Assembly (NCBI GenBank): GCA_022009935.1
Contig: CP091731.1
Span: 1,222,212 to 1,286,211 of the forward strand
From: Candidatus Melainabacteria bacterium
GTDB lineage: Bacteria; Cyanobacteriota; Vampirovibrionia; Gastranaerophilales; Gastranaerophilaceae
Direction of reading: 5' to 3'
Length of the DNA: 64,000 bases
Shown here: positions 11,952 to 64,000 of the stretch, piece by piece
How positions within the stretch are numbered: position 1 is the stretch's first letter
Layout: each line of letters starts with the position of its first letter
Position numbers and translations under genes: made by a program
Notes under the pieces: generated by a model
The model's database searches: none
What the model saw: only the letters and a program-made list of their open reading frames with translations
Told to the model about the DNA's origin: nothing

Positions 11952-13255
11952 TGCCACCGATAACACATAGTAAAGTTGGTGCATCTTCATGTGAACGTTG
12001 GTGGAATTGTCCGGGGAGTAATGCTTTAATAGCAAAACTCCCACCGGCGGACTCTTCAAAATACGCGGCAGAAGGCACCGCGGCGCATAGTTTATGCGAA
12101 CATGTTCTTACAAATAAAATACATTTTAAAGCAAAATGGGATGCGCTCAATAGGATTGGGGAAAAGCTTGAAGTCGACGACTTTATTTTTGAAGTAACCG
12201 AAGAAATGGCGAACGCTGTAAATTTGTATGTAAAAACTATCATTGAAGATGCCAAACGCATAGGCTGTACTATTTATAAAAAATTTCAAATAGACAGTAA
12301 AATATATAATTCATCCGACAAAGGCATAAGGATTTTCAAGGGATATATATACCATGGGTAAATATTGAGCAAGACTTTCAGCTCACAAACATTGATAAAG
12401 GAAGCAAGAGGAACTAACGATGCTTCAATATTAGTGCCGGGTGAAACGCTTATTGTTTACGATTTTAAATATGGGGCAGGCATCCCGATTGAAGCAGTGG
12501 AAAATAAACAAATGCTTTATTATGCTATAGGAGCTGCAGGGGATAAACTGATGGACTTCAAGACTATTGAACTGGTGATTATTCAGCCAAGAGCAGAGCA
12601 TCCGATCGGCTCTATAAGACGTTGGGTAACAACACCTGAATATGTGGCTAAGTTTGGTGAAGAACTAAAAAACGTATTGCTGAAACAAGAAACCCGAAAG
12701 CTTTAACATTTGCGGGGAAATGGTGTCGTTTTTGTAATGCAAAACTTATATGCCCTTCTATGCGAGATAAGTCCTACGAACTTGCGAAAATAGATTTTCA
12801 AAAGCCCGTTAGTGAAAATAAAGTAAAAGCCCCAATGAATTAAGCAAGGGGAACTTAAATTATTTTTGGATAACGCCCAATTATTAGAAAATTATATTAA
12901 AGAAGTTAGAAATTATGCAGAAAAATTACTTGAAAGCGGTAAATCTATAGAAGGCTATAAACTTGTAAAATCTACTAAAACACATAGAAAATGGAACGAT
13001 AAAGATGAGAATATTGCCTCGATGCTCGAATTGGAATTGGGTGTTGATTATAACAGTTTATTTAATAAAACATTAAAAACCCCTTCTCAAATCGAAAAGA
13101 TGATAAAAGGTTCTAAAGAGATTTTAGCGAGTTATTGGTTTAGGCCGGAAGGCAAAAACATTCTTGTAAAAGAAGAAGACCAAAGAGAAAAGCAAGCACC
13201 GTCAGCTATTGCGGATTTTCAAAATTTTCAAAATATTGAAGATTTAGGACTATAA
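11951..13255 (+). CDS. DUF2800-type PD-(D/E)XK (Cas4-like) nuclease, frame changes
   Basis: GASSCERWWNCPGS...KYAAEGTAAHSLCE N-terminus, DFKYG core and C-terminal Cys cluster GKWCRFCNAKLICP. Usual partner of DUF2815 and PolA in this phage module. Confidence 0.65.
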
Positions 13256-16102: not shown

Positions 16103-17180
16103 ATGACAAAACCAAAAAAAGAAAAAATAACAGGCTATAAAGTTTTTTAACCACGATTGGACTTGTCGAGGTTTCAAGTATGAAATTGGCAAAACTTATA
16201 CACACGAAGGTGAAATATCCTTGTGTAAAGAAGGTTTTCACTTTTGTAAAAATTTAATGGATTGCTTTGAATTTTACGATTGTGTAACTTGGAACAAAAT
16301 TGCCAAAGTTGAAGCCTTAGGAGAAGTCAAAACAGACGATAAAAAATGCGTAACAAACAAGATAAAAATATTAGAAGAAATACCACTTGACAAAATTGGG
16401 GAGTATGTTCAAACTGATTTAAATACTGCTGTCAACGAGTCTTATGGTGTTAACCAGTCTAATGGTGTCAATTTGTCTGATGGTGTCAATTTGTCTGATG
16501 GTGTCAATTTGTCTAATGGTGTTAACGAGTCTGATGGTGTTAACCAGTCTAATGGGGTTAACTGTTCTGATGGTGTTAACTATTCTTATGGGGTTAGCAG
16601 GTCTAATGGTGTTGACGAGTCTTATGGCGTTAACCAGTCTAATGGTGTCAATTTGTCTGATGGTGTCAACGGGTCTTGTGGTGTCAACGGGTCTTGTGGT
16701 GTTAACAGGTCTGATGGTGTTAACAGGTCTTATGGTGTCAACGGGTCTTGTGGTGTTAACGGGTCTTGTGGTGTTAACAGGTCTTATGGTGTTAACTATT
16801 CTTATGGCGTTAACTGGTCTAATGGTGTTAACTTGTCTTATGGAATATTAAACTCTTATGGAGTTTCAAATGCTTTATTTTTAGCAAACAAACCACAAAC
16901 ATACACAATTTTTGGTAAAAATGTAACAAAAGAAAAGTTTAATGAAGTTTGGCAAATATTTCATAAAAAGCTTAACGGCTGGACACCAACATTTAACAAT
17001 TTAAAAAGTTTATACCTTAAATCCAGTTCTGATTGGAAATTGACCCCAATACCAAACGCAGAAGAGATAAGCAAAAAAGAAGCTTGGAGAAGTATGCCCA
17101 AAGAAGCCATTGAGTATATCAAATCACTTGAAGAGTTTGATAAGGATATGTTTGAAGAGATTACAGGAATTGAGGTATAA
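16103..17180 (+). CDS. phage protein with Cys/His N-terminal domain (DUF7666-like, from memory) and about 20 tandem 7-residue GVNxSxG repeats; one frame change near the start
   Basis: MTKPKKEKITGYKVF(N)HDWTCRGFKYEIGKTYTHEGEISLCKEGFHFCKNLMDCFEFYD, then NGVNLSDGVNLSDGVNLSNGVNESDGVNQS..., then a non-repetitive C-terminus. Confidence 0.6.
16431..16866 (+). repeat. 21-nt coding tandem repeat, about 20.8 units
   Basis: GGTGT(T/C)AAC-NNN-TCT-N(A/G)T periodicity. Variation is concentrated in two codons per unit. Confidence 0.9.
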
Positions 17181-19811: not shown

Positions 19812-20395
19812 TTTTTATATAAACCTAGCACAAAAAAAAACAAAGAAGTCCAATGGCTGACACTGCTTTATCTATAGACTTATGTCACAAGTTGCTTGAT
19901 TTTTTCTTTTTTTATATAAACCTAGCACAAAAAAAAACAAAGAAGTCCAAACTTGACTCTTCCTTGTTTTTTCGACTTTCTTAGCTAAATCTTTGCTTTT
20001 CTTCTTTTATATAAACCTAGCACAAAAAAGCAAAGAAGTCCAATGGCTGACACTGCCTTATCTATAAACTTATCCCACAAGTTGCTTAGATTTTTCTTTT
20101 TTTATATAAACCTAGCACAAAAAAAAACAAAGAAGTCCAAACTTGACTCTTCCTTGCTTTTTTCGACTTTCTTAGCTAAATCTTTGCTTTTTCTTCTTTT
20201 ATATAAACCTAGCACAAAAAAAACAAAGAAGTCCAAACTTGACTCTTCCTTGCTTTTACGACTTTCTTAGCTAAATCTTTGCTTTTCTTCTTTTATATAA
20301 ACCTAGCACAAAAAAAAACAAAGAAGTCCAATGGCTGACACTGCTTTATCTATAGACTTATGTCACAAGTTGCTTAGATTTTTTCTTTTTTATAC
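19812..20395. repeat. tandem array C: six 94-97-nt units with a common head and two alternative tails (order a-b-a-b-b-a)
   Basis: TATATAAACC unit starts at 19816, 19913, 20008, 20103, 20200 and 20294. The common head is TATATAAACCTAGCACAAAAAAAAACAAAGAAGTCCAA. The tails copy gene 3' ends (see findings). Confidence 0.9.
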
Positions 20396-21811: not shown

Positions 21812-22380
21812 ACATGCTTGTCTTCACTTCATCGTTCCAAATTATTGACAACTTTTTAAATAACGGACTTTGTGCGTCCAACAATTTGACTTTATCCACC
21901 AATGTGAATTGACTTTTGTTTGATTATAGCGTTGAAGTTCAATTAATACTTTTGTTAAACATTTTTTGTTTTTTCCGCCTGGGGCAGCGGATTCTACCCT
22001 AAAGGGCACCCTCCCTTGTACGGCTCGATTGCCATCTCGCCTACAAGAGGAGCTGTTGGTAGGGCGGAGTCGAGCGTTAGCGAGCGAGCCCGTAACAAAA
22101 CTAAAACAATGATTAGACTAAGAATTTAAAAAACGGGCTGCAATATAAAAAAAATCCGCTGGAGTGGAGCCTTGAAAAGGCGAAACGGAATGCAAGGATT
22201 GCGCTAAGCCAAATAATTTGGTATAACTAATTTTGAACAAATAACAACCCGACGTAATCCAAGAATCTGCCCTCATTTTATTCGGGCATCTGTCCTACGG
22301 CGGATTTTTTTATATACATGATGGGGACGGCTTCGCCGTCCCCACACTGCAACCCTCTTTGACATTCATAACTGAAAGTG
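21812..22380. repeat. non-coding mosaic of repeat modules (L, family-A core, GC-rich hairpins, K, M, H1)
   Basis: Modules are shared with 26126-27060 and 60224-60388: L 21812-21852, A-core 21897-21968, long GC hairpin 21975-22068, K 22153-22202, M (reverse) 22248-22303, H1 22323-22343. Confidence 0.8.
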
Positions 22381-22386
22381 TGGAAT

Positions 22387-22430
22387 AAAAAAAAGCAAAA
22401 GAAGTCCAAACTTGACTCTTCCTTGCTTTT
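22387..22430 (-). terminator. intrinsic terminator of pnp
   Basis: On the minus strand: AAGCAAGGAAGAGTC...GACTTCTTTTGCTT stem followed by an A/T-run (T8 in RNA sense), 10 nt after the pnp stop. Confidence 0.6.
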
Positions 22431-22439
22431 TCAATTTTC

Positions 22440-24572
22440 TTAGTTAAATCTTTGCTTTTCTTCTTCTGAAACACCTTTGATTGTCAAATTGACACGACCT
22501 TTGTCATCGATTTTAATAACTTTGACAATAACTTCATCGCCAATAGACAATTTGCTTTCAACGGTTTCAATACGTTCATTTGCAACTTGAGAAATATGCA
22601 CCATACCGTCTTTTCCGGGGGCAAGCTCAACAAAAGCTCCGATTGGTATAATTCTTACAACTTTTCCACGGCGAACCATACCCTCAACCGGTTTAAAAGT
22701 CGCATCTTCAATCATACGCATTGCTATATTAGCACCCTCGGCATCATTGCTTGTAATTGTAACATGTCCGTCATCTTGTATATCAATTTCAGCACCGCTA
22801 CATTCAATAATATTTTTAATATTTTTGCCTCCCGGACCAATAACAACACCAATATCATCAACATCAATGTTCATTGAATAAATGCGAGGTGCAAACGGTG
22901 ACATCTCTTTAGCAGGTTCAGTTATTACTTCACGCATTTTGCCAAGAATGTGCAAACGACCTTCTTTAGCCTGGTTTAAAGCTTGACGCAAAGTTTCATT
23001 GCTTATGCCTTTCACCTTCATATCCATCTGTAAAGCAGTAATGGCTTCGTCATTACCTGTAACCTTAAAGTCCATATCGCCCAAAAAGTCTTCAATACCT
23101 TGAATATCAGTCAGTACAACAGTTGCATCATCTTCTTTGATTAATCCCATAGCAACTCCGCCAATCATACATTTAACAGGAACACCCGCATTCATTAAAG
23201 CCATTGAGCTGCCACAAGTTGAAGCCATAGAAGTTGAACCGTTTGATTCCAAAACATCAGATGTAACACGGATTGTGTAACCAAATTTGTCCATATCAGG
23301 CAAAGCAGGAACATTTGCACGTTCAGCCAAGTTTCCATGACCTATTTCACGACGTCCCGGGCTTCTCAATGCCTTTACTTCACCTACTGAAAACCCAGGG
23401 AAAATGTACTTGTGCATATACGTCTTTTTAGTCAATGGGTCAACACCATCCAATTCAAGTGCCATTGAAGGTCCTGCAAGTGTTGCAACAGAAAGAACTT
23501 GAGTTTGCCCACGAGTGAATACGGCTGAACCATGAGCACGAGGAATTACCCCAACTTCACACCAAATCGGTCTGACTTCTGTTATTTTACGTCCGTCTGC
23601 ACGAACTCCCTCATCGATAATCATTCGACGCATTATTTTCTTTTCCAAATATTTAAACTCTTCAGCTATAAAATCAATGCCCGATTCATTTATCATTTTA
23701 TTTATTTCATCTTCTTCGCCTAAGGCTGCAACTTTTTCCTTAACAAGCGTTTTAGCTTCTTCAAGCTTATTTTGACGGTACTCACGGTCAAAATTATGAT
23801 AAGCATCATAAATCATATCATAAGCTGTTTCTTTTATTATTGAAGCCAAACGACTTGTGTCATAAGGATTTACAAATTCAGGTTTTTCAACCCCACACAT
23901 TTTAGCAAATTCAATTTGTGCTTGAACTTGTTTTTTATCTCAACTTGAGCAAACTCAACTGCGTGCATAATGTCATCTTCGGTCACAAAATTGCAACCGG
24001 CTTCAACCATAATAACACTGTTTTCAGTACCTGCAACAACTATATCCAAATCAGATTCTTTTGATTGTTGGTGAGTCGGGTTTGCAATATATTCACCATT
24101 AATACAAGCTACACGAACGGCACCGATAGGGACCTTCAAACGGAGCTTCTGTCAACATCAATGCAAATGAAGCACCCAACATTGCAAGAGTATCTGCTTG
24201 GTTTTCTTGGTCATAACTCATAAGTTGAGCCACGATTTGAACATCATTTCTATATCCTTTAGGAAATAAAGGACGAATTGGTCTGTCTATCAATCTTGAT
24301 ATTAATATAGCTTTTTCACTCGGACGTCCTTCATTTTTGGTAAATCCACCGGGAATTCGTCCAATAGCTGACATACGTTCTTCATAATCAATAAGCAACG
24401 GGAAAAAATCAATACCTACACGTGGTTCTTTTGCAACTGTTGCATGCACAAATAACATTGTATCACCACAACGTATTGTTACAGAAGAGCTTGCACTTCT
24501 TGCATATTTCCCTGTTTCTACTTCAACAACTTTTCCACCTATGGTAAGTTGTATTTTTTTACTTTCAACCAT
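22440..24572 (-). CDS. pnp: polyribonucleotide nucleotidyltransferase (PNPase), two frame changes
   Basis: Three ORF-track fragments (24099-24572, 23870-24139, 22440-23900) give a colinear PNPase: two RNase PH domains, KH, and S1 (GKVVRIIPIGAFVELAPGKDGMVHISQVA). One break is at the T6 run 23931-23936. Confidence 0.9.
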
Positions 24573-26125: not shown

Positions 26126-26514
26126 ATATGACGGGCTGCGGATTCGTCGTTGGCCGTCTTGGATTTCTTTCTAGCTCACAGAGCCGTGCCTTATGTGCCT
26201 TGCACAAGCCGGCACGGTCTGTTCGCTCCCCGGACTACGCCCGTTCAGAAATCCGCTTGCCTGATTGTGAGGAGAAAAGCGTTGCATCCGTGCGGAGCTT
26301 TAGACGAGGAAGCGACCCAGCTTCCGAGTATAAAGCGAAGTAGTTAATGACCGCCGTAGGAAAGACGACCGAATGAAATGAGGGCGGATGCCCCAGGCGG
26401 TAAAAAGCGTAAGCCGTGCGTAAAACAAAGCCAAAACGGCTCAGTTTTGGATTTGTTTGTAGCAGTTAATAGGCGACGGCGGATTCGCAGTTGGCCTTGC
26501 CTGATTGTGAGGAA
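26126..26514. other. GC-rich non-coding segment with long imperfect hairpins and module M copy A
   Basis: Much higher GC than the flanks. Extended hairpin 26167-26212 (AGAGCCGTGCC...GGCACGGTCT). M at 26351-26400. TTGCCTGATTGTGAGGA is repeated at about 26258 and 26497. The ORFs here have no SD and implausible composition. Confidence 0.6.
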
Positions 26515-26812
26515 CTGAACGGAGTGAAATAATTTTGTAAAAAAATTATGAAACGGAGTTGCATAGTTCCGAACGCTGCGTAATCCAAGATAAAAGAGTT
26601 TTCTTCGAAAACTCCACAGGAGCGAAAACTGAACGGAGTGGAACAATTTTGTAAAAATTGTGAAACGGAGTTGCATAGTTCGAACGCTGCGTAATCCAAG
26701 ATAAAAGAGTTTTCTTCGAAAACTCCACAGGAGCGAAAACTGAACGGAGTGGAACAATTTTGTAAAAATTGTGAAACGGAGTTGCATAGTTCCGAACGCT
26801 GCGTAATCCAAG
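26515..26812. repeat. 2.7 tandem units of 114/111 nt, each with two perfect 7-8 bp hairpins
   Basis: CTGAACGG unit starts at 26515, 26629 and 26740. Hairpins are ACAATTTT-GTA-AAAATTGT and GAGTTTTC-TTC-GAAAACTC. Unit 1 has the compensated variant ATAATTTT...AAAATTAT. Confidence 0.85.
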
Positions 26813-27060
26813 ACATGCTGTCTTCACTTCATCGTTCCAAATTATTGACAACTTGCAATCCTGCATTCCGTTTCGCCTTTTCAAGGCTACACTCCAGCGG
26901 ATTGCTGCGAACTTACGTGCTGGGTGTGCTGACGCACACACGGCGCACTAGTCAAAATTTGGCTAACCACGGCGGATATTATTTAATGCAGGGGGACGGC
27001 AAAGCCGTCCCCCTGCACCCCTTGGATATTCACAACTAAAAATGTGGAAAACAGAGCCAA
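26813..27060. other. GC-rich mosaic segment (modules L, K inverted, H1)
   Basis: L at 26813-26854 (same as 21812-21852). K at 26855-26905 (reverse complement of 22153-22202). H1 hairpin at 26988-27016, preceded by CCACGGCGG plus an AT spacer. Confidence 0.7.
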
Positions 27061-27096
27061 ACAAATGAGTGAACATTTCACGGGTTGCAAGGGGTT

Positions 27097-27371: not shown

Positions 27372-28429
27372 CTACTTCAAACCAACAAGATAATTAGTAA
27401 GTATTGCTTCAAACTCGTTTAATAAATCTTCTTCTTTTACTTTTTTAATTATCTCGCCTTTTTTAAAAATATAACCTTCACCAATACCGCCTGCAATTCC
27501 AAAATCAGCATGTCTGGCTTCTCCCGAGCCATTGACGGCACATCCCATAACCGCAATTGTCAAAGGAGTTTTTATATTTTTAAATCTTTCCTCCACTTTG
27601 TGAGCAAGGTCAATCAAGTTTATTTTACACCTGCCACAAGTAGGGCAAGAGATAAAATTTATACCTTCATCACGAAGTTTTAAAGCTCGTAGTATATTAA
27701 ACCCTGCATAGACTTCTTCAATAGGGTTTTCACTTAGCGAAACACGTATTGTATCACCTATACCGTCAAGCAAAAGCGGTGAAAATGCAAGAGATGATTT
27801 TATTAGACCGTTTTTAAAGTACCTGCTTCTGTCAAGCCCAAGTGTAGCGGGTAATCTACTTTTTTGTCAATAAGCCTGTATGCTTCAATTGTTGTTTTAA
27901 CATCAGAAGATTTTAAAGACACTTTTATTTGGTCAAAATCGTTATCTTCTAATATCTTTATGTGTTCCATTGCCGACTCAACCATTTTTTCTGCAAGCGT
28001 TAAATCGTCACGGTTTGCATATTTTTTATCCAATGACCCCCCATTTATCCCGATACGGATTGGAATGTTGTGTTTTTTTGCACATTCGACAACTTTTTTA
28101 ACATTCTCTTCTTTTCCAATATTCCCAGGGTTCAATCTCAAAGCATCAACACCCATATCAATAGCGGTTAAAGCAAGCCTATAGTCAAAATGAATATCCG
28201 CAACAATTGGTATTGGTGATTTTTTCTTTATATCTTTCAAAGCGCTTGCCGCATCTTTATTTAAAACAGCTAAACGTATTATTTCACAACCGGCTTCGCT
28301 TAATTTAAAAATTTGGTTTAAAGTAGCGTTAACATCACAAGTATTTGTCGTACACATTGATTGGACAGCTATTTTATTTCCGCCACCGATTTTTACATCA
28401 CCTATTTTTATTACCTTTTTCATAGCCAT
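27372..28429 (-). CDS. ispG: 4-hydroxy-3-methylbut-2-en-1-yl diphosphate synthase (IspG/GcpE), one frame change
   Basis: Fragments 27803-28429 and 27372-27773 are colinear: ...HLGLTEAGT / GIGDTIRVSLS...CPTCGRC...GCAVNGSGEA. The break is at the T5/A3 run 27811-27818. Confidence 0.9.
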
Positions 28430-58608: not shown

Positions 58609-60109
58609 TTAAATGAACTTATGTTTTTTCTTTAATGTTTCAATATCTTCGTCATTCATTTTTTCACCGGAATTTAGTTTATCATTAAGTTGAGGCATAT
58701 TGGATTCAAAATAATCAAACCAACATTTTTTAAACTCAGGGATTTTAGTATTTTTTATATCATCTAAAAACCCATTGTTAGCGGCAAAAAGGATAGATAT
58801 TTGTTTTGCGACACTCAATGGTGAATACTGTGGTTGTTTCAAAACTTCAGTTAATTTTTCACCTCGAAGAAGTTGGTCTCGAGTAGCTTTATCCAAATCA
58901 CTTGCAAACTGTGCAAACGCTTCAAGTTCGTGGTATTGTGCCAAATCTAAACGAAGTTGTCCTGCAACTTGTTTAATACCTTTTGTTTGTGCAGCACCAC
59001 CTACACGAGAAACAGAAATCCCTGCATTTATTGCAGGACGTACACCTGAATTAAATAAATTGCTTTCCAGGAATATTTGTCCGTCAGTTATAGAAATAAC
59101 ATTAGTGGGGATATAAGCAGAGACGTCGCCGGCTTGAGTTTCAATAATAGGCAAAGCAGTTATACTTCCACCACCTAATTCATCATTCAGCTTACAAGCA
59201 CGCTCAAGCAATCTTGAATGTAAATAAAAGACATCACCAGGGTAAGCTTCACGTCCCGGTGGGCGTTTCAACAACAAGCTCATTGCACGATATGCTTGAG
59301 CGTGCTTTGTCAAATCATCATATATTATTAAAACTGATTTTCCCTCTTCCATAAACTCTTCGCCAATTGCAACACCCGCAAATGGTGCTATATATTGCAT
59401 TGGAGCCGGTGAGTTCGCAGAAGCGTTCACTATTATTGTATAATCCATAGCATCGTGTTCATTCAACGTTTTGGCTAGTTGAGCAACTGTTGAGTTCTTT
59501 TGACCGATTGCAACATAAATACATATTACATCACGACCTTTTGGTTGATGATTGTGTCAATAGCGATAGCTGTTTTGCCTGTTTGTCTATCTCCAATAAT
59601 CAACTCACGTTGTCCTTTTCCAATTGGTGTTAATGCATCAATTGCAGTCAAGCCTGTTTGAAGTGGCTCTATGTACTGATTTTCTTGTTACAATCCCCGG
59701 TGCAACACGTTCAATGGCTCGAGTTTTTGTATATTCGATATTGCCTTTACCGTCAAGTGCAACCCCTGTTGGGTCAATTATCCTTCCTATCAGGCCTGTA
59801 CCAACCGGTACTGATGCAATTCGTCCTGTCGTTTTTACTTTAGTGCCTTCTTTTATTTCTTTATAATCACCCAAGATTACAACACCAACATTATCTTCTT
59901 CTAGGTTTAACACAAGACCCAAAGTTTTATTTTCATCTTCAAACTCGACAAGTTCACTTTTGCATGGCATCTTTCAAACCATATATTCTTGCTATGCCAT
60001 CGCCTGATTCAAGCACCTGACCTTGTGTGTTTATTTCAACTCGACTTTCATAATTCTCTATTTTTGAACGTATTATATTTGTGATTTCGCTTGGATTTAT
60101 TGTTACCAT
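58609..60109 (-). CDS. atpA: ATP synthase F1 alpha subunit (frame changes)
   Basis: [23 protein letters not shown]..., ...[15 protein letters not shown]..., [13 protein letters not shown] (Walker A region in a shifted frame), ...[19 protein letters not shown]... Confidence 0.9.
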
Positions 60110-60780
60110 TTTTTATATAATCCTTCCTTGTTATATTACATCAAGTCCAATCTTGACACTTCTTCAATCTCTAATTATACTACTAAACCATTGATTTTCT
60201 GTTTTATATAACCCTTCCTTGTTTAATTTTGCTATTGTTTGTTTACTTTTTTGGGGGTTGCAGGGAGGCTTTGCCTCCCCTGCTGTTATAAAATCCGCCG
60301 TAGGAAAGACGCCCGATTGAAATGAGGGCGGATCCCTCAGGCGGAAAAAAGAGTTTGGAATGTTTGTATCTATTTAATTTTTATTTGGTTTATATAACCC
60401 TTCCTTGTTATATTACATCAAGTCCAATCTTGATACTTCTTCAATCTCTAATTATACTACTAAACCATTGATTTTCTGTTTTATATAACCCTTCCTTGTT
60501 ATATTACATCAAGTCCAATCTTGACACTTCTTCAATCTCTAATTATACTACTAAATCATTGATTTTCTGTTTTATATAACCCTTCCTTGTTATATTACAT
60601 CAAGTCCAATCTTGACACTTCTTCAATCTCTAATTATACTACTAAACCATTGATTTTTTTGTTTTATATAACCCTTCCTTGTTATATTATATCAAGTCCA
60701 ATCTTGACACTTCTTCAATCTCTAATTATACTACTAAACCATTGATTTTCTGTTTTATATAACCCTTCCTTGTTATATTA
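60110..60780. repeat. tandem array B: 91-92-nt units (five full, two partial) filling the atpH-atpA intergenic region
   Basis: TATATAAC starts at 60114, 60205, 60391, 60482, 60573, 60665 and 60756. Each full unit carries TTGACA-17-TATACT on the + strand (first copy 60153-60181). Confidence 0.9.
60224..60388 (+). other. 165-nt GC-rich segment (H1 hairpin + module M) replacing most of array-B unit 2
   Basis: H1 GCAGGGAGGC-TTT-GCCTCCCCTGC at 60260-60283. Spacer TGTTATAAAAT. M CCGCCGTAGGAAAGACGCCCGATTGAAATGAGGGCGGATCCCTCAGGCGG at 60295-60344. Confidence 0.7.
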
Positions 60781-61323
60781 CATCAAATTATTCTTTAATC
60801 GTTCATATCTGCTTTTTATACTACCATCAATTATTTTATCATTAGTTTTTATAATTAAACCACCAATGATTGATTTATCAACGGTATAATTTAATAGTAT
60901 TGTCTTTTTAAATTTGTTTTCCAATTTATACTTTAAACGTTCTTTTGTTTCATCGTTTAAAACTATAGCTGATGTTACGCTAACTTTAAGTTTATTTTTA
61001 ATCTCATCATCGAACTCGCAATACCAATGTGCTATATCTTCAAATATATCCATCCGACGTGCTTGAATTAACATTCTTAGAAAATTTAGTGTTTTTTCTG
61101 ATATTTTAGATGCAAAAATTTCACTAATAATTTCTTCAACTTTTTCTTCATTAAATGTTGGATTTATAAGCACATTCTTTAAATCTGAAGATGATTTTAT
61201 TGTTTCATTTATTAAGCTCAAATCATTACGTATAACATCAATATCATTTCCTGCACTTTCAATTAATGCACGTGAATATCGTTTTGCTATTGTTTCATTT
61301 TTATAACTCATGTTTTTCATCAT
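60778..61323 (-). CDS. atpH: ATP synthase F1 delta subunit (OSCP)
   Basis: Intact 181 aa. IAKRYSRALIESA... and C-terminal DKSIIGGLIIKTNDKIIDGSIKSRYERLKNNL. Confidence 0.85.
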   Translation of the reverse strand: MMKNMSYKNETIAKRYSRALIESAGNDIDVIRNDLSLINETIKSSSDLKNVLINPTFNEEKVEEIISEIFASKISEKTLNFLRMLIQARRMDIFEDIAHWYCEFDDEIKNKLKVSVTSAIVLNDETKERLKYKLENKFKKTILLNYTVDKSIIGGLIIKTNDKIIDGSIKSRYERLKNNLM

Positions 61324-62633: not shown

Positions 62634-64000
62634 TTTTTTATATAACGGGCTATCGCCCTACATCCTTCTTATTCTACCACCAACGTGGAATGACTTTTGT
62701 TTAATTTTTGCATTGAAGTCCAATTATTTCATTTTCCTTCAAATACTTTGTTTTAGGTTTTATATAACGGGCTATCGCCCTACATCCTTCTTATTCTACC
62801 ACCAACGTGGAATGACTTTTGTTTTGATTTTGCATTGAAGTCCAATTATTTCATTTTCCTTCAAATACTTTGTTTTAGGTTTTATATAACGGGCTATCGC
62901 CCTACATCCTTCTTATTCTACCACCAACGTGGAATGACTTTTGTTTTGATTTTGCATTGAAGTCCAATTGGTACTTCCTAATATCGTTTATCATAATAAA
63001 CTTAAATTTGTGCAACCCATACGCAGTCGTGAACAATTATCACTTAACGAAACATCGTCAAAGCCAAGTTTGTTTGAACATTGGGCTTTGCCCAATGTGA
63101 GTTACGCAGGCTCGAGTTGAGTTTAGTGAAAATGTGAACGACAAGTCGGGGACTGAGTTTTTGTGCAACTTTGCCACCAAAAGTTGCCCCGTCCGGAGGA
63201 CATTATATTTAATTTAGTTTTATTAACCTTTAATTTTTTATTTTCCATTTTTTCCTTTTTTATATAACGGGCTATCGCCCTACATCCTTCTTATTCTACC
63301 ACCAACGTGGAATGACTTTTGTTTAATTTTTGCATTGAAGTTCAATTATTTCATTTTCCTTCAAATACTTTGTTTTGGGTTTTTATATAACGGGCTATCG
63401 CCCTACATCCCTTCTTATTCTACCACCAATGTGGAATGACTTTTGTTTAATTTTTGCATTGAAGTTCAATTATTTCATTTTCCTTCAAATACTTTGTTTT
63501 GGGTTTTATATAACGGGCTATCGCCCTACATCCTTCTTATTCTACCACCAACGTGGAATGACTTTTGTTTTGATTTTGCATTGAAGTCCAATTGGTACTT
63601 CCTAATATCGTTTATCATAATAAACTTAAATTTGTGCAACCCATACGCAGTCGTGAACAATTATCACTTAACGAAACATCGTCAAAGCCAAGTTTGTTTG
63701 AACATTGGGCTTTGCCCAATGTGAGTTACGCAGGCTCGAGTTGAGTTTAGTGAAAATGTGAACGACAAGTCGGGTGCCGGTTTTGTGCAACTTTTGCCAC
63801 CAAAGTTGCCCCGTCCGGAGGACATTATATTTAATTTAGTTTTATTAACCTTTAATTTTTTATTTTCCATTTTTTCCTTTTTTATATAACGGGCTATCGC
63901 CCTACATCCTTCTTATTCTACCACCAATGTGGAATGACTTTTGTTTAATTTTTGCATTGAAGTTCAATTATTTCATTTTCCTTCAAATACTTTGTTTTAG
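62634..64000. repeat. higher-order tandem repeat upstream of atpE: 622-bp blocks of three family-A units plus a 289-nt X segment; continues past the window end
   Basis: TATATAAC starts at 62639, 62761 and 62883, then 63261, 63384 and 63507, then 63883. X segments at 62970-63260 and 63595-63882. Block period is exactly 622 nt. Confidence 0.9.

Follow-up and report, generated by a model that had tools for sequence, protein, structure and literature searches.

Short GC-rich hairpin modules in an AT-rich Gastranaerophilales genome resemble the mosaic repeat families of other bacteria

Introduction

The described systems closest to the repeats reported here are the BIMEs, BOX elements, NIMEs and PATEs. 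In the BIMEs (REP/PU) of enterobacteria, extragenic GC-rich imperfect palindromes and short motifs are combined into mosaics. The BOX elements of Streptococcus pneumoniae are assembled from boxA, boxB and boxC modules in variable composition; they are non-coding and intergenic in a low-GC genome, are predicted to form stable hairpins and possess no transposase of their own. The repeat units of the NIMEs of Neisseria are separated by 20-nt dRS3 repeats. The non-autonomous PATEs derived from IS200/IS605, like other hairpin-guided single-strand transposons, lack terminal inverted repeats and depend on hairpins. Some REP and BOX elements have been reported to protect upstream mRNA or to direct processing.

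Gastranaerophilales, an order within the phylum Melainabacteria, are common uncultured relatives of cyanobacteria in the human gut and are known almost only through metagenome-assembled genomes (MAGs). No description of such repeats in Melainabacteria was found in the literature, and the repeat family reported here for these uncultured gut bacteria was apparently not previously described. The analyzed window is a 64,000-nt stretch of contig CP091731.1. A preliminary description of its sequence had pointed to a compact GC-rich module, consisting of a hairpin (H1), an AT spacer and a second motif (M), that recurs at three loci.

The family of this module shares features with each of the above systems. 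With BIMEs it has in common the mosaics of extragenic GC-rich imperfect palindromes and short motifs, the location after genes and between convergent genes, the lineage specificity, the copy number of tens to hundreds and, in M, an invariant GTAG, which was required by the search patterns. However, the sequences show no similarity, M has three helices and, at about 50 nt, exceeds a REP in length, its neighbouring copies are arranged directly and not as inverted pairs, the palindrome of H1 is perfect and its loop flips, and no RAYT was found in 0.78 Mb. Like BOX elements, the repeats are short, modular, non-coding and intergenic, are found in a low-GC host, vary in their modules, contain hairpins and have no transposase of their own. 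Unlike BOX elements, with which they share neither sequence nor host phylum, their modules nest in each other's hairpins at fixed positions and are embedded in intergenic tandem arrays of the host. As in NIMEs, there are unit-junction-unit arrays: in the MAG BRZ_DS__bin68 (bin68), H1-M and other units are separated by a recurring motif of about 22 nt, CCCCGTCCGGAGGACATTAAAT. This motif is unrelated to dRS3, is absent from the window copy in the atp operon (copy A) and has a putative role as a recombination or integration site. The resemblance to PATEs lies in the lack of terminal inverted repeats, the hairpin dependence and a nested element, T, with a fixed insertion point, a single orientation and no target duplication. 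Nevertheless, 0.78 Mb of DNA yielded no TnpA (Y1), a hairpin common to the left and right ends is missing, and the block of copy A is flanked by a 21-nt duplication, which is not made by the PATE mechanism.

Results

The window has a GC content of about 30%. It carries a cyanobacterial-type atp operon on its minus strand, as well as pnp, ispG, tmRNA and tRNAs, and its genes have matches of about 75-80% in Candidatus Gastranaerophilales MAGs. Frameshifts interrupt many of these genes in the window, atpA, pnp and ispG among them, whereas strain contigs have them intact, and the window is therefore regarded as an error-prone assembly. Contigs of other metagenomes encode an AtpH protein identical to that of the window.

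The module of H1, AT spacer and M was confirmed at 60260-60344 (plus strand), 22344-22265 (minus strand) and 27017-26967 (minus strand). When the window was scanned, ATCCGCCGTAGG with up to 2 mismatches gave 5 matches against 0.69 expected, and the 19-nt core of M with up to 3 mismatches gave 3 matches against 0.00 expected. A covariance model of M scored 85 bits at 60291-60349 (plus strand), 85 bits at 26347-26405 (plus strand) and 41 bits at 22300-22259 (minus strand). The features of the window copies, A to D, are as follows.

60203-60223, plus strand: left 21-nt direct repeat TTTATATAACCCTTCCTTGTT of copy A, perfect, starting a 91-nt array unit
60224-60388, plus strand: copy A, whole inserted block of 165 nt (AT-rich left arm, H1, spacer, M, A-run, AT-rich right arm)
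60260-60283, plus strand: H1 of copy A, arms 60260-60269 and 60273-60283, loop TTT
60295-60344, plus strand: M of copy A, outer helix CCGCC/GGCGG, middle helix AGG/CCT, 11-nt loop GATTGAAATGA, 85 bits
60310-60314 and 60326-60330, plus strand: inner helix of M in copy A, CGCCC and GGGCG
60389-60409, plus strand: right 21-nt direct repeat TTTATATAACCCTTCCTTGTT of copy A, flanking the block
22322-22355, minus strand: copy B, G-run/GGGTTGCAG (22355-22347) and H1, arms 22344-22335 and 22331-22322, loop GAA
22265-22303, minus strand: copy B, 5' part of M, TGCCC/GGGCA variant, cut after GGGCAGAT, 41 bits at model positions 8-51
21986-22264, minus strand: copy B, nested insert of 279 nt, starting with TCTTGGATTACG, with module N reversed inside, ending with GAATCCGCT
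21975-21985, minus strand: copy B, 3' remainder of M, GCCCCAGGCGG, followed by an A-run and a reversed array unit; 12.6-bit match at 21994-21970
26987-27021, minus strand: copy C, GGGGTGCAG and H1 (27017-26987), TGCAGGGGGACGGC-TTT-GCCGTCCCCCTGCA, 14 bp
26967-26975, minus strand: copy C, outer-frame start CCGCCGTGG, resembling the alternative core "M2" of loci L041 and L083
26295-26350, plus strand: "P" module (GAGCTTTAGACGAGGAAGCGACCCAGCTTCCGAGTATAAAGCGAAGTAGTTAATGA) preceding M of copy D, an alternative upstream partner of M
26351-26400, plus strand: copy D, complete M with an A.G mismatch in the inner helix (CGACC/GGGCG), 85 bits
26143-27093, strand unassigned: GC-rich mosaic block with copies C and D, module N and 2.7 tandem T units
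26513-26813, minus strand: tandem 111-nt T units (2.7 units), beginning with TCTTGGATTACG; the T element nests inside M elsewhere
62968-63205: another module, of about 240 nt, ended by the CCCCGTCCGGAGGACATTAAAT motif

Several details of the preliminary description had to be revised. The M of copy B, which had been drawn as far as 22248, ends with GGGCAGAT at 22265 and is split by the 279-nt insert (22264-21986). Because this nested element sits inside M, M appears cut and an orphan GCCCCAGGCGG is left at 21985-21975. Copy C had been taken for a truncated form; it has no closing GGCGG in the window, but it starts like the second core variant and may not be a simple truncation. The motif thought to stand alone at 26351-26400 is indeed M, but the recurrent P module lies directly upstream of it. 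Likewise, GGGTTGCAG is present upstream of H1, but it comprises just the G-run and the base of the H1 stem and is no separate motif. The single bulged G in H1 of copy A turned out to be an assembly error. In the strain contigs, this H1 is a perfect 12-bp stem (GCAGGGGGAGGC-TTT-GCCTCCCCCTGC), so the bulge is a homopolymer miscall, and the arm lengths of this H1 in the window are distorted by homopolymer errors.

The distribution of the repeats was then considered beyond the window. A scan with an exact pattern, covering one genome per species, returned 57 loci, 51 of them in Gastranaerophilales-type assemblies, and a second scan of metagenomes, in which both stems were left free, added 16 gut-metagenome loci with real copies. 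The covariance model of M recognized 82 copies in 0.47 Mb of retrieved DNA. About 50 M copies reside in bin68, all outside long ORFs, and fewer in HGM07904, UMGS1657 and UMGS1995. Many copies lie within 100 nt of contig ends, as expected for repeats, which break short-read assemblies. Six matches in other phyla were devoid of the remainder of the motif, and nine loci of other taxa reached at most 15.7 bits in the covariance model; the matches in Caballeronia, Microvirga, Anaerohalosphaeraceae, Oscillospiraceae and Clostridia were dismissed as chance, since they had GC-rich surroundings without the flanks of M. Scans of viral contigs, phage records and plasmid records gave zero matches, and a phage, plasmid or viral origin was rejected because no match occurred in those collections. 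Thus, in the scans made, real copies were met only in Gastranaerophilales-type assemblies, and they are not confined to the window, many of them lying in other genomes, which speaks for the observation.

Six strain contigs with an identical atpH gene were compared at the atpH-atpA spacer. Block A (60224-60388) was carried by L002, L003 and L006 and lacking in L001, L004 and L005, in which the empty spacer of the same species measures 118 nt. The segment polymorphic among the strains is exactly the one that had been suspected of being an insertion. The recent gain or loss of block A is therefore directly shown by empty and filled sites. Moreover, the C/D mosaic of about 1 kb (26143-27093) is missing in L065, L066 and L070, whose spacer is 157-277 nt compared to 1370 nt in the window. 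In bin68 and HGM07904, H1-M lies beside the same orthologous gene in opposite orientations. Further empty or filled sites were sought in additional strains, and three of the four look-ups gave no exact protein match, the window genes being frameshifted. Gain and loss of the mosaic blocks take place on a strain-level time scale.

The stem of H1, a GC-rich palindrome, pairs perfectly over 10-16 bp and encloses a 3-nt loop; a G-run lies upstream. Its lineage variants change both arms together, near the loop (...GAGGC/GCCTC..., ...GAAGC/GCTTC..., ...GACGGC/GCCGTC...) as well as at the stem base (ATAT/ATAT, TGCA/TGCA, TTGAA/TTCAA). The loop was TTT in 19 copies, AAA in 14, TTC in 6 and GAA in 1, and bin68 alone contains otherwise identical H1 hairpins with either a TTT or an AAA loop. 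Since a loop is swapped for its own complement, palindrome inversion or template switching between the arms is suggested. Furthermore, the lengths of the G-run and C-run arms were correlated (rho 0.62), being equal in 18 of 35 copies compared to 9 expected. The loop flip and the tracking of arm lengths point to arm-to-arm copying in DNA, and the perfect pairing of H1 appears to be at least partly a DNA-level property. Given the TTT/AAA flip and the G/C-run tracking, the compensatory changes ascribed to H1 count as weak evidence that a structure, or an RNA fold, is selected.

M consists of three nested helices, CCGCC/GGCGG, (A)GG/CC(U) and CGCCC/GGGCG, with a loop of 11-12 nt, GAATGAAATGA. Intact copies had fold z-scores of -3.7 to -5.3 (about -4 and -4.6 for copy A), RNAalifold independently yielded the identical nesting, including that of copy A, and the fold was the same and equally good under DNA parameters. 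The inner-helix covariation proposed earlier (CGCCC/GGGCG versus TGCCC/GGGCA) held, and with more copies four of the five pairs were found to change on both sides. In an alignment fitted to the model, among copies that are related to each other, C-G was replaced by U-A in 14 of 48 distinct M rows and G-C by A-U in 3 of 48. In one row (the L026 sequence, twice in tandem) C-G was replaced by A-U, which repairs the A.G mismatch of eight other rows, and the loop-closing pair changed from C-G to U-A in 2 rows. Eight of the 48 rows have a mismatched pair midway along the inner helix. These substitutions lend moderate support, short of proof, to a maintained inner helix. Pairs of the G.U type (13) were not clearly commoner than those of the A.C type (8), so that the folding strand of M is not singled out. 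Conservation extends to the 11-nt loop and the GTAGGA internal loop, where it is in part forced by the search patterns. GTAG, between the outer and middle helices, is invariant, but this invariance is ascertained because both search patterns demanded it. A short ORF starting from the ATG in the M loop was, by eye, not conserved across copies and was discarded.

The gene context of the copies was then taken into account. Among 25 copies fully flanked by a long ORF on each side, 15 lay between convergent genes, 3 between divergent genes and 7 in co-directional contexts; the latter were 3 sense and 4 antisense, with no orientation bias in this small sample. Of the window copies, A lies antisense to the atp operon, in the atpH-atpA spacer, copy B is sense to pnp, just after the canonical hairpin-plus-T-run intrinsic terminator of pnp itself, and copies C and D are between convergent genes.

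With most copies downstream of genes, copy B straight after pnp and copy A within the atp operon, H1 and/or M could act as RNA, either in cis as 3'-UTR or intercistronic hairpins (protection from 3' exonucleases, processing) or as a small RNA, mobility being the vehicle only. The four covarying pairs of the inner helix and the conserved loops agree with such a role; conserved unpaired nucleotides together with covarying stems suit a functional RNA equally well, and RNAalifold gives the same M structure. However, the co-directional copies are divided between both orientations, as are copy A (antisense to atp) and copy B (sense to pnp), G.U pairs do not clearly exceed A.C pairs, the loop conservation is in part imposed by the search patterns, the middle of the inner helix is mismatched in 8 of 48 rows, and the H1 loop flip is a DNA event.

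The Rfam comparison bears on the same question. At the gathering threshold, the window and 16 related loci yielded tRNA and tmRNA only, and matches to LhrC and hammerhead in permissive scans were judged to be noise. There was a sub-threshold likeness to Clostridiales-2 (RF02937), which reached 27.7 bits (E 7.5e-05 on 221 nt) in the error-free strain copy and 19.6 bits in the window against a gathering threshold of 58.6, and identity with that family was rejected. The alignment of copy A covers both model ends, with the G-run, the stem of H1, the CCGUUAUAA spacer and GCCGUAGGAAAG; 27 nt of the middle of the model are lacking from it. This likeness is limited to the copy of the window species, and none was seen in seven rescanned loci of other lineages. 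The alternative of an ncRNA raised by the preliminary description thus received no positive evidence from the sub-threshold Rfam scores, the orientations in the small sample or the pair counts (G.U 13, A.C 8), and we consider a function as RNA unlikely.

The modules combine in several ways. M is joined upstream by either H1 or the 56-nt P module, with an identical boundary; P, which among the alternatives to H1 is the one most often joined to M in other genomes, lies before M in L011, L012, L016, L022, L041, L048, L051, L055, L060, L087 and L091. In L041 and L083, a second core (M2) occupies the same outer frame, CCGCCGT...CCYCAGGCGG. The H1-M unit of bin68 is bounded on both sides by the CCCCGTCCGGAGGACATTAAAT motif, which contains a small palindrome and also terminates another module of about 240 nt; copy A of the window is without this motif. 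The other modules of the family are P, T, N and X, in addition to the 22-nt junction motif. Distinct short repeats (H1, P, M2, T, N, X and the junction motif) hence occur in variable order, and the BIME-like mosaic character proposed for the module was upheld by about 80 copies combined with differing neighbour modules.

The T element (TCTTGGATTACG...GAATCCGCT) sits inside M directly after GGGC[AG]GAT, and M then resumes with NCCNCAGGCGG. Five such copies of different subtypes were found (window copy B, L029, L050, L078 and L091), always in the orientation of M. The end motif GAATCCGCT is shared by L050, L078 and L091, whose 3' junction is on the contig; the contig of L029 stops 21 nt into the insert, where the entry point alone is visible. 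All four copies with the 3' junction on the contig were free of a duplication. Judged from these junctions, the fixed-site, one-orientation and duplication-free entry of T into M looks enzymatic and structure-guided. Hairpin modules also contain or adjoin IS1-like copies; the loop of a CCCTCTCCC/GGGAGAGGG palindrome holds several of these, one lies directly next to H1, and in L083 an IS3-like end adjoins the 3' arm of H1.

It can be speculated that H1, M, T, X and the junction motif form a guild of non-coding elements without terminal inverted repeats, which enter each other's hairpins at fixed nucleotides and are driven by a putative hairpin-recognizing enzyme (HUH/Y1-like, IS110-like or another structure-guided recombinase), with the conserved loops and the covarying stem of M as its recognition site. 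This proposal is a tentative one and probably not correct as it stands. If true, it would represent a mobilization system without a described counterpart in this phylum.

A perfect 21-nt direct repeat, equal to the start of the host 91-nt array unit, flanks block A, and its left copy (60203-60223) contains the ribosome-binding site of atpA on the opposite strand. The block has no terminal inverted repeats, its ends aligning with a score of 8.0 compared to 8.9 +/- 1.8 for shuffled sequence, and terminal direct repeats were not above chance either. By eye, the right arm of the block bears some resemblance to a piece of another array unit, which, if real, suggests a chunk copied from a donor mosaic and not a precisely bounded element. 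The search for RAYT/IS200-like transposases found none: in 0.78 Mb of retrieved DNA, which is part of the genomes, tblastn with IS200 TnpA and E. coli RAYT queries gave no Y1/RAYT hit better than an E of 0.2. About 50 M copies in bin68 agree with the many-copy extragenic imperfect palindromes of REP/RAYT systems; in contrast, no inverted doublets were seen, every close pair of M being direct (L008, L012, L016, L026, L028, L040 and L091). The REP/BIME-like label of the preliminary description therefore stands for the mosaic, but not for membership in REP/RAYT, given the direct arrangement of close M copies and the negative Y1 search in 0.78 Mb. The multi-copy ORFs near the copies were an IS1-like transposase and a 122-aa ORF without a Pfam match, and there were no others. 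An IS1-derived MITE was ruled out, as IS1-like ends (GGAATTGTTAACATTTCATTG) occur only on the IS copies and not at module ends; a weak resemblance of ATTAACTTTCG to such ends was also rejected. A classical MITE is disfavoured, since there are neither terminal inverted repeats nor a parent IS with matching ends.

As the 21-nt flank is the start of an array unit, unequal or homologous recombination between array units would explain block A as well as transposition does. More generally, the modules may be passive passengers of hyper-recombinogenic intergenic DNA, moved by homologous or illegitimate recombination and by gene conversion via array units and junction motifs, with palindromes persisting by template-switching repair. 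This would be in line with the 21-nt array-unit start around block A, with all window copies lying within or next to tandem arrays that differ in unit number from strain to strain, with the reversed array unit that forms the tail after M in copy B and HGM07904, and with the reshuffled combinations of modules. However, about 50 near-identical copies lie at unrelated loci of one genome, including AT-rich unique flanks without an array, and T enters M at a position fixed at the single-nucleotide level, in one orientation and with no duplication, which looks enzymatic. Recombination as the whole explanation is accordingly regarded as quite unlikely.

Finally, although the GC-rich stems of H1 and M lie after genes, and in copy B, read on the opposite strand, TTTTTTTAT comes after a small 7-bp partial stem of M, an intrinsic transcription terminator is extremely improbable, as the terminator scan found no terminator-like site at copy A (59900-60900) on either strand, in keeping with the earlier claim that the module is not a terminator, the sequence after H1 is an A/T mixture and that after M an A-run, with no U-tract, and the canonical pnp terminator is already upstream of copy B.

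Discussion

We assign a probability of roughly 0.6 to the reading that the H1-M repeats are a BIME/BOX/NIME-like, non-coding, non-autonomous mosaic repeat family of one lineage, i.e., a new family of a known kind. The repeats are multi-copy, lineage-restricted, insertion-polymorphic and modular; nesting occurs at a fixed site, M covaries and H1 flips at the DNA level. The H1-M module is an ordinary kind of bacterial genome feature, with no evidence for a new RNA gene or terminator.

In such a mosaic family, H1-spacer-M would be the conserved core of short GC-rich interspersed repeats that have multiplied in the AT-rich genomes of a narrow group of gut Gastranaerophilales. H1 and M are two separate hairpin modules, M also being paired with another upstream module, and with P, T, N, X and the junction motif they make up mosaic blocks. 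These accumulate where they cause little damage, namely downstream of genes, between convergent genes and in AT-rich tandem arrays. The hairpins may be kept since a putative trans-acting mobilizing or recombining enzyme recognizes folded DNA, and the mosaics may grow by the repeated entry of modules into, or beside, the hairpin of another module. We speculate that the family spreads by transposition-like mobilization rather than by recombination alone.

High-copy mosaic repeats of this kind explain why Gastranaerophilales assemblies break after genes. The family marks intergenic regions that are not to be taken for RNA genes, and it supplies strain-level insertion markers for typing. Block A puts two very stable hairpins inside the atp operon and may affect its expression. 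Moreover, the fixed-site nesting in the hairpin of another element provides a concrete handle for finding the mobilizing enzyme in this phylum.

Frameshifts and the left part of the window

Many genes of the window were found to be broken by frameshifts, while the same genes are intact in other strains, and the 64 kb contained just 22 ORFs with a length of 180 aa or more. Examples of genes split in this way are as follows.

pnp, 22440-24572
ispG, 27372-28429
atpA, 58609-60109

Errors in homopolymer length also distorted the perfect GC-rich hairpin H1 in copy A, the copy in the atpH-atpA spacer, where G5 became G4 and C5 became C3.

The segment 1-19000 resembles a prophage or another integrated element. 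A 189-aa protein is common to this segment and the strain contig L093, which carries Prim-Pol/VapE and SNF2 helicase genes. At 16439-16843, 22.5 copies of an 18-nt repeat were observed. The GC-rich island at 644-721, with palindromes (GGGGCCCC...GGCCACGAGGCC...), is isolated amid AT-rich DNA and has no sequence kinship with H1 or with the three-tier hairpin M.

Insertion sequences beside the hairpin modules

An IS1-like element and an IS3-like end were located in the fetched loci.

IS1-like element, approximately 675 bp: L038, 3784-4458; L061, 2193-2867; also L018 and L009
IS3-like end (GTCCACTTTTT[AG]G[AG]GGA[TC]AGTTCA): L083, about 12020-12090; L089, about 200-270

The IS1-like element, which has an InsA-type zinc ribbon and the ends GGAATTGTTAACATTTCATTG, was inserted within or adjoining hairpin modules; several copies occupied the loop of the palindrome CCCTCTCCC-TTTA-GGGAGAGGG, one copy in L018 directly adjoined H1, and one or more copies, among them that of L061 at its right end, had an AT-rich flank of unrelated sequence. 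The IS3-like end adjoined M in L089 and the 3' arm of H1 in L083, and the translation of the sequence preceding it was similar to a transposase C-terminus. L089, a gut Gastranaerophilales-like contig, also gave an AdoCbl-II riboswitch match at 559-636 (42.6 bits vs. a gathering score of 36.5), which has no relation to the H1-M module.

Other recurrent modules

Module of approximately 240 nt (GTGCAACCCATACGCAG...GTTGCCCCGTCCGGAGGACATTA): 62968-63205 and 63592-63827, an insertion into the 122-nt arrays that separate atpB from atpE
Module N (AATCCGCTGGAGTG.AGCCTTGAAAAGGCGAAACGGAATGCA), a 42-nt pair: 22153-22194 and 26862-26903, in mosaics B and C (mixed-module blocks holding copies B and C), respectively

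A module related to the 240-nt one was present in the atpB-atpE arrays of the strain contigs L003 and L004, in reverse orientation relative to the window, and was absent from those of L001 and L002; the Gastranaerophilales MAG BRZ_DS__bin68 was rich in the window's form. The two copies of module N were 98% complementary, their orientations in the two mosaics being opposite. A type III hammerhead candidate at module N (18 bits, E = 5) looks like noise and was rejected.

Tandem units at pnp and in the atp operon

pnp units, 97/190 nt: 19813-20331 and 22389-22488
atpH-atpA units, 91 nt: 60104-60223 and 60389-60786

The pnp units are copies of the final pnp codons and the pnp intrinsic terminator (AAAGCAAGGAAGAGTCAAGTTTGGACTTCTTTGCTTTTTTT), and their count 3' of pnp varied among strains when the window was compared with loci L064-L073. 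In the window, the first unit was parted from the remaining ones by approximately 2 kb, a segment holding copy B and one gene. Each 91-nt unit duplicates the stop region of atpH together with the ribosome-binding site of atpA; the window has more than 5 units, and some strains as few as 1.3. Every 91-nt unit contained TTGACA-17-TATACT on the + strand, matching 11 of the 12 consensus positions, antisense to the atp operon and directed into the H1-M block.
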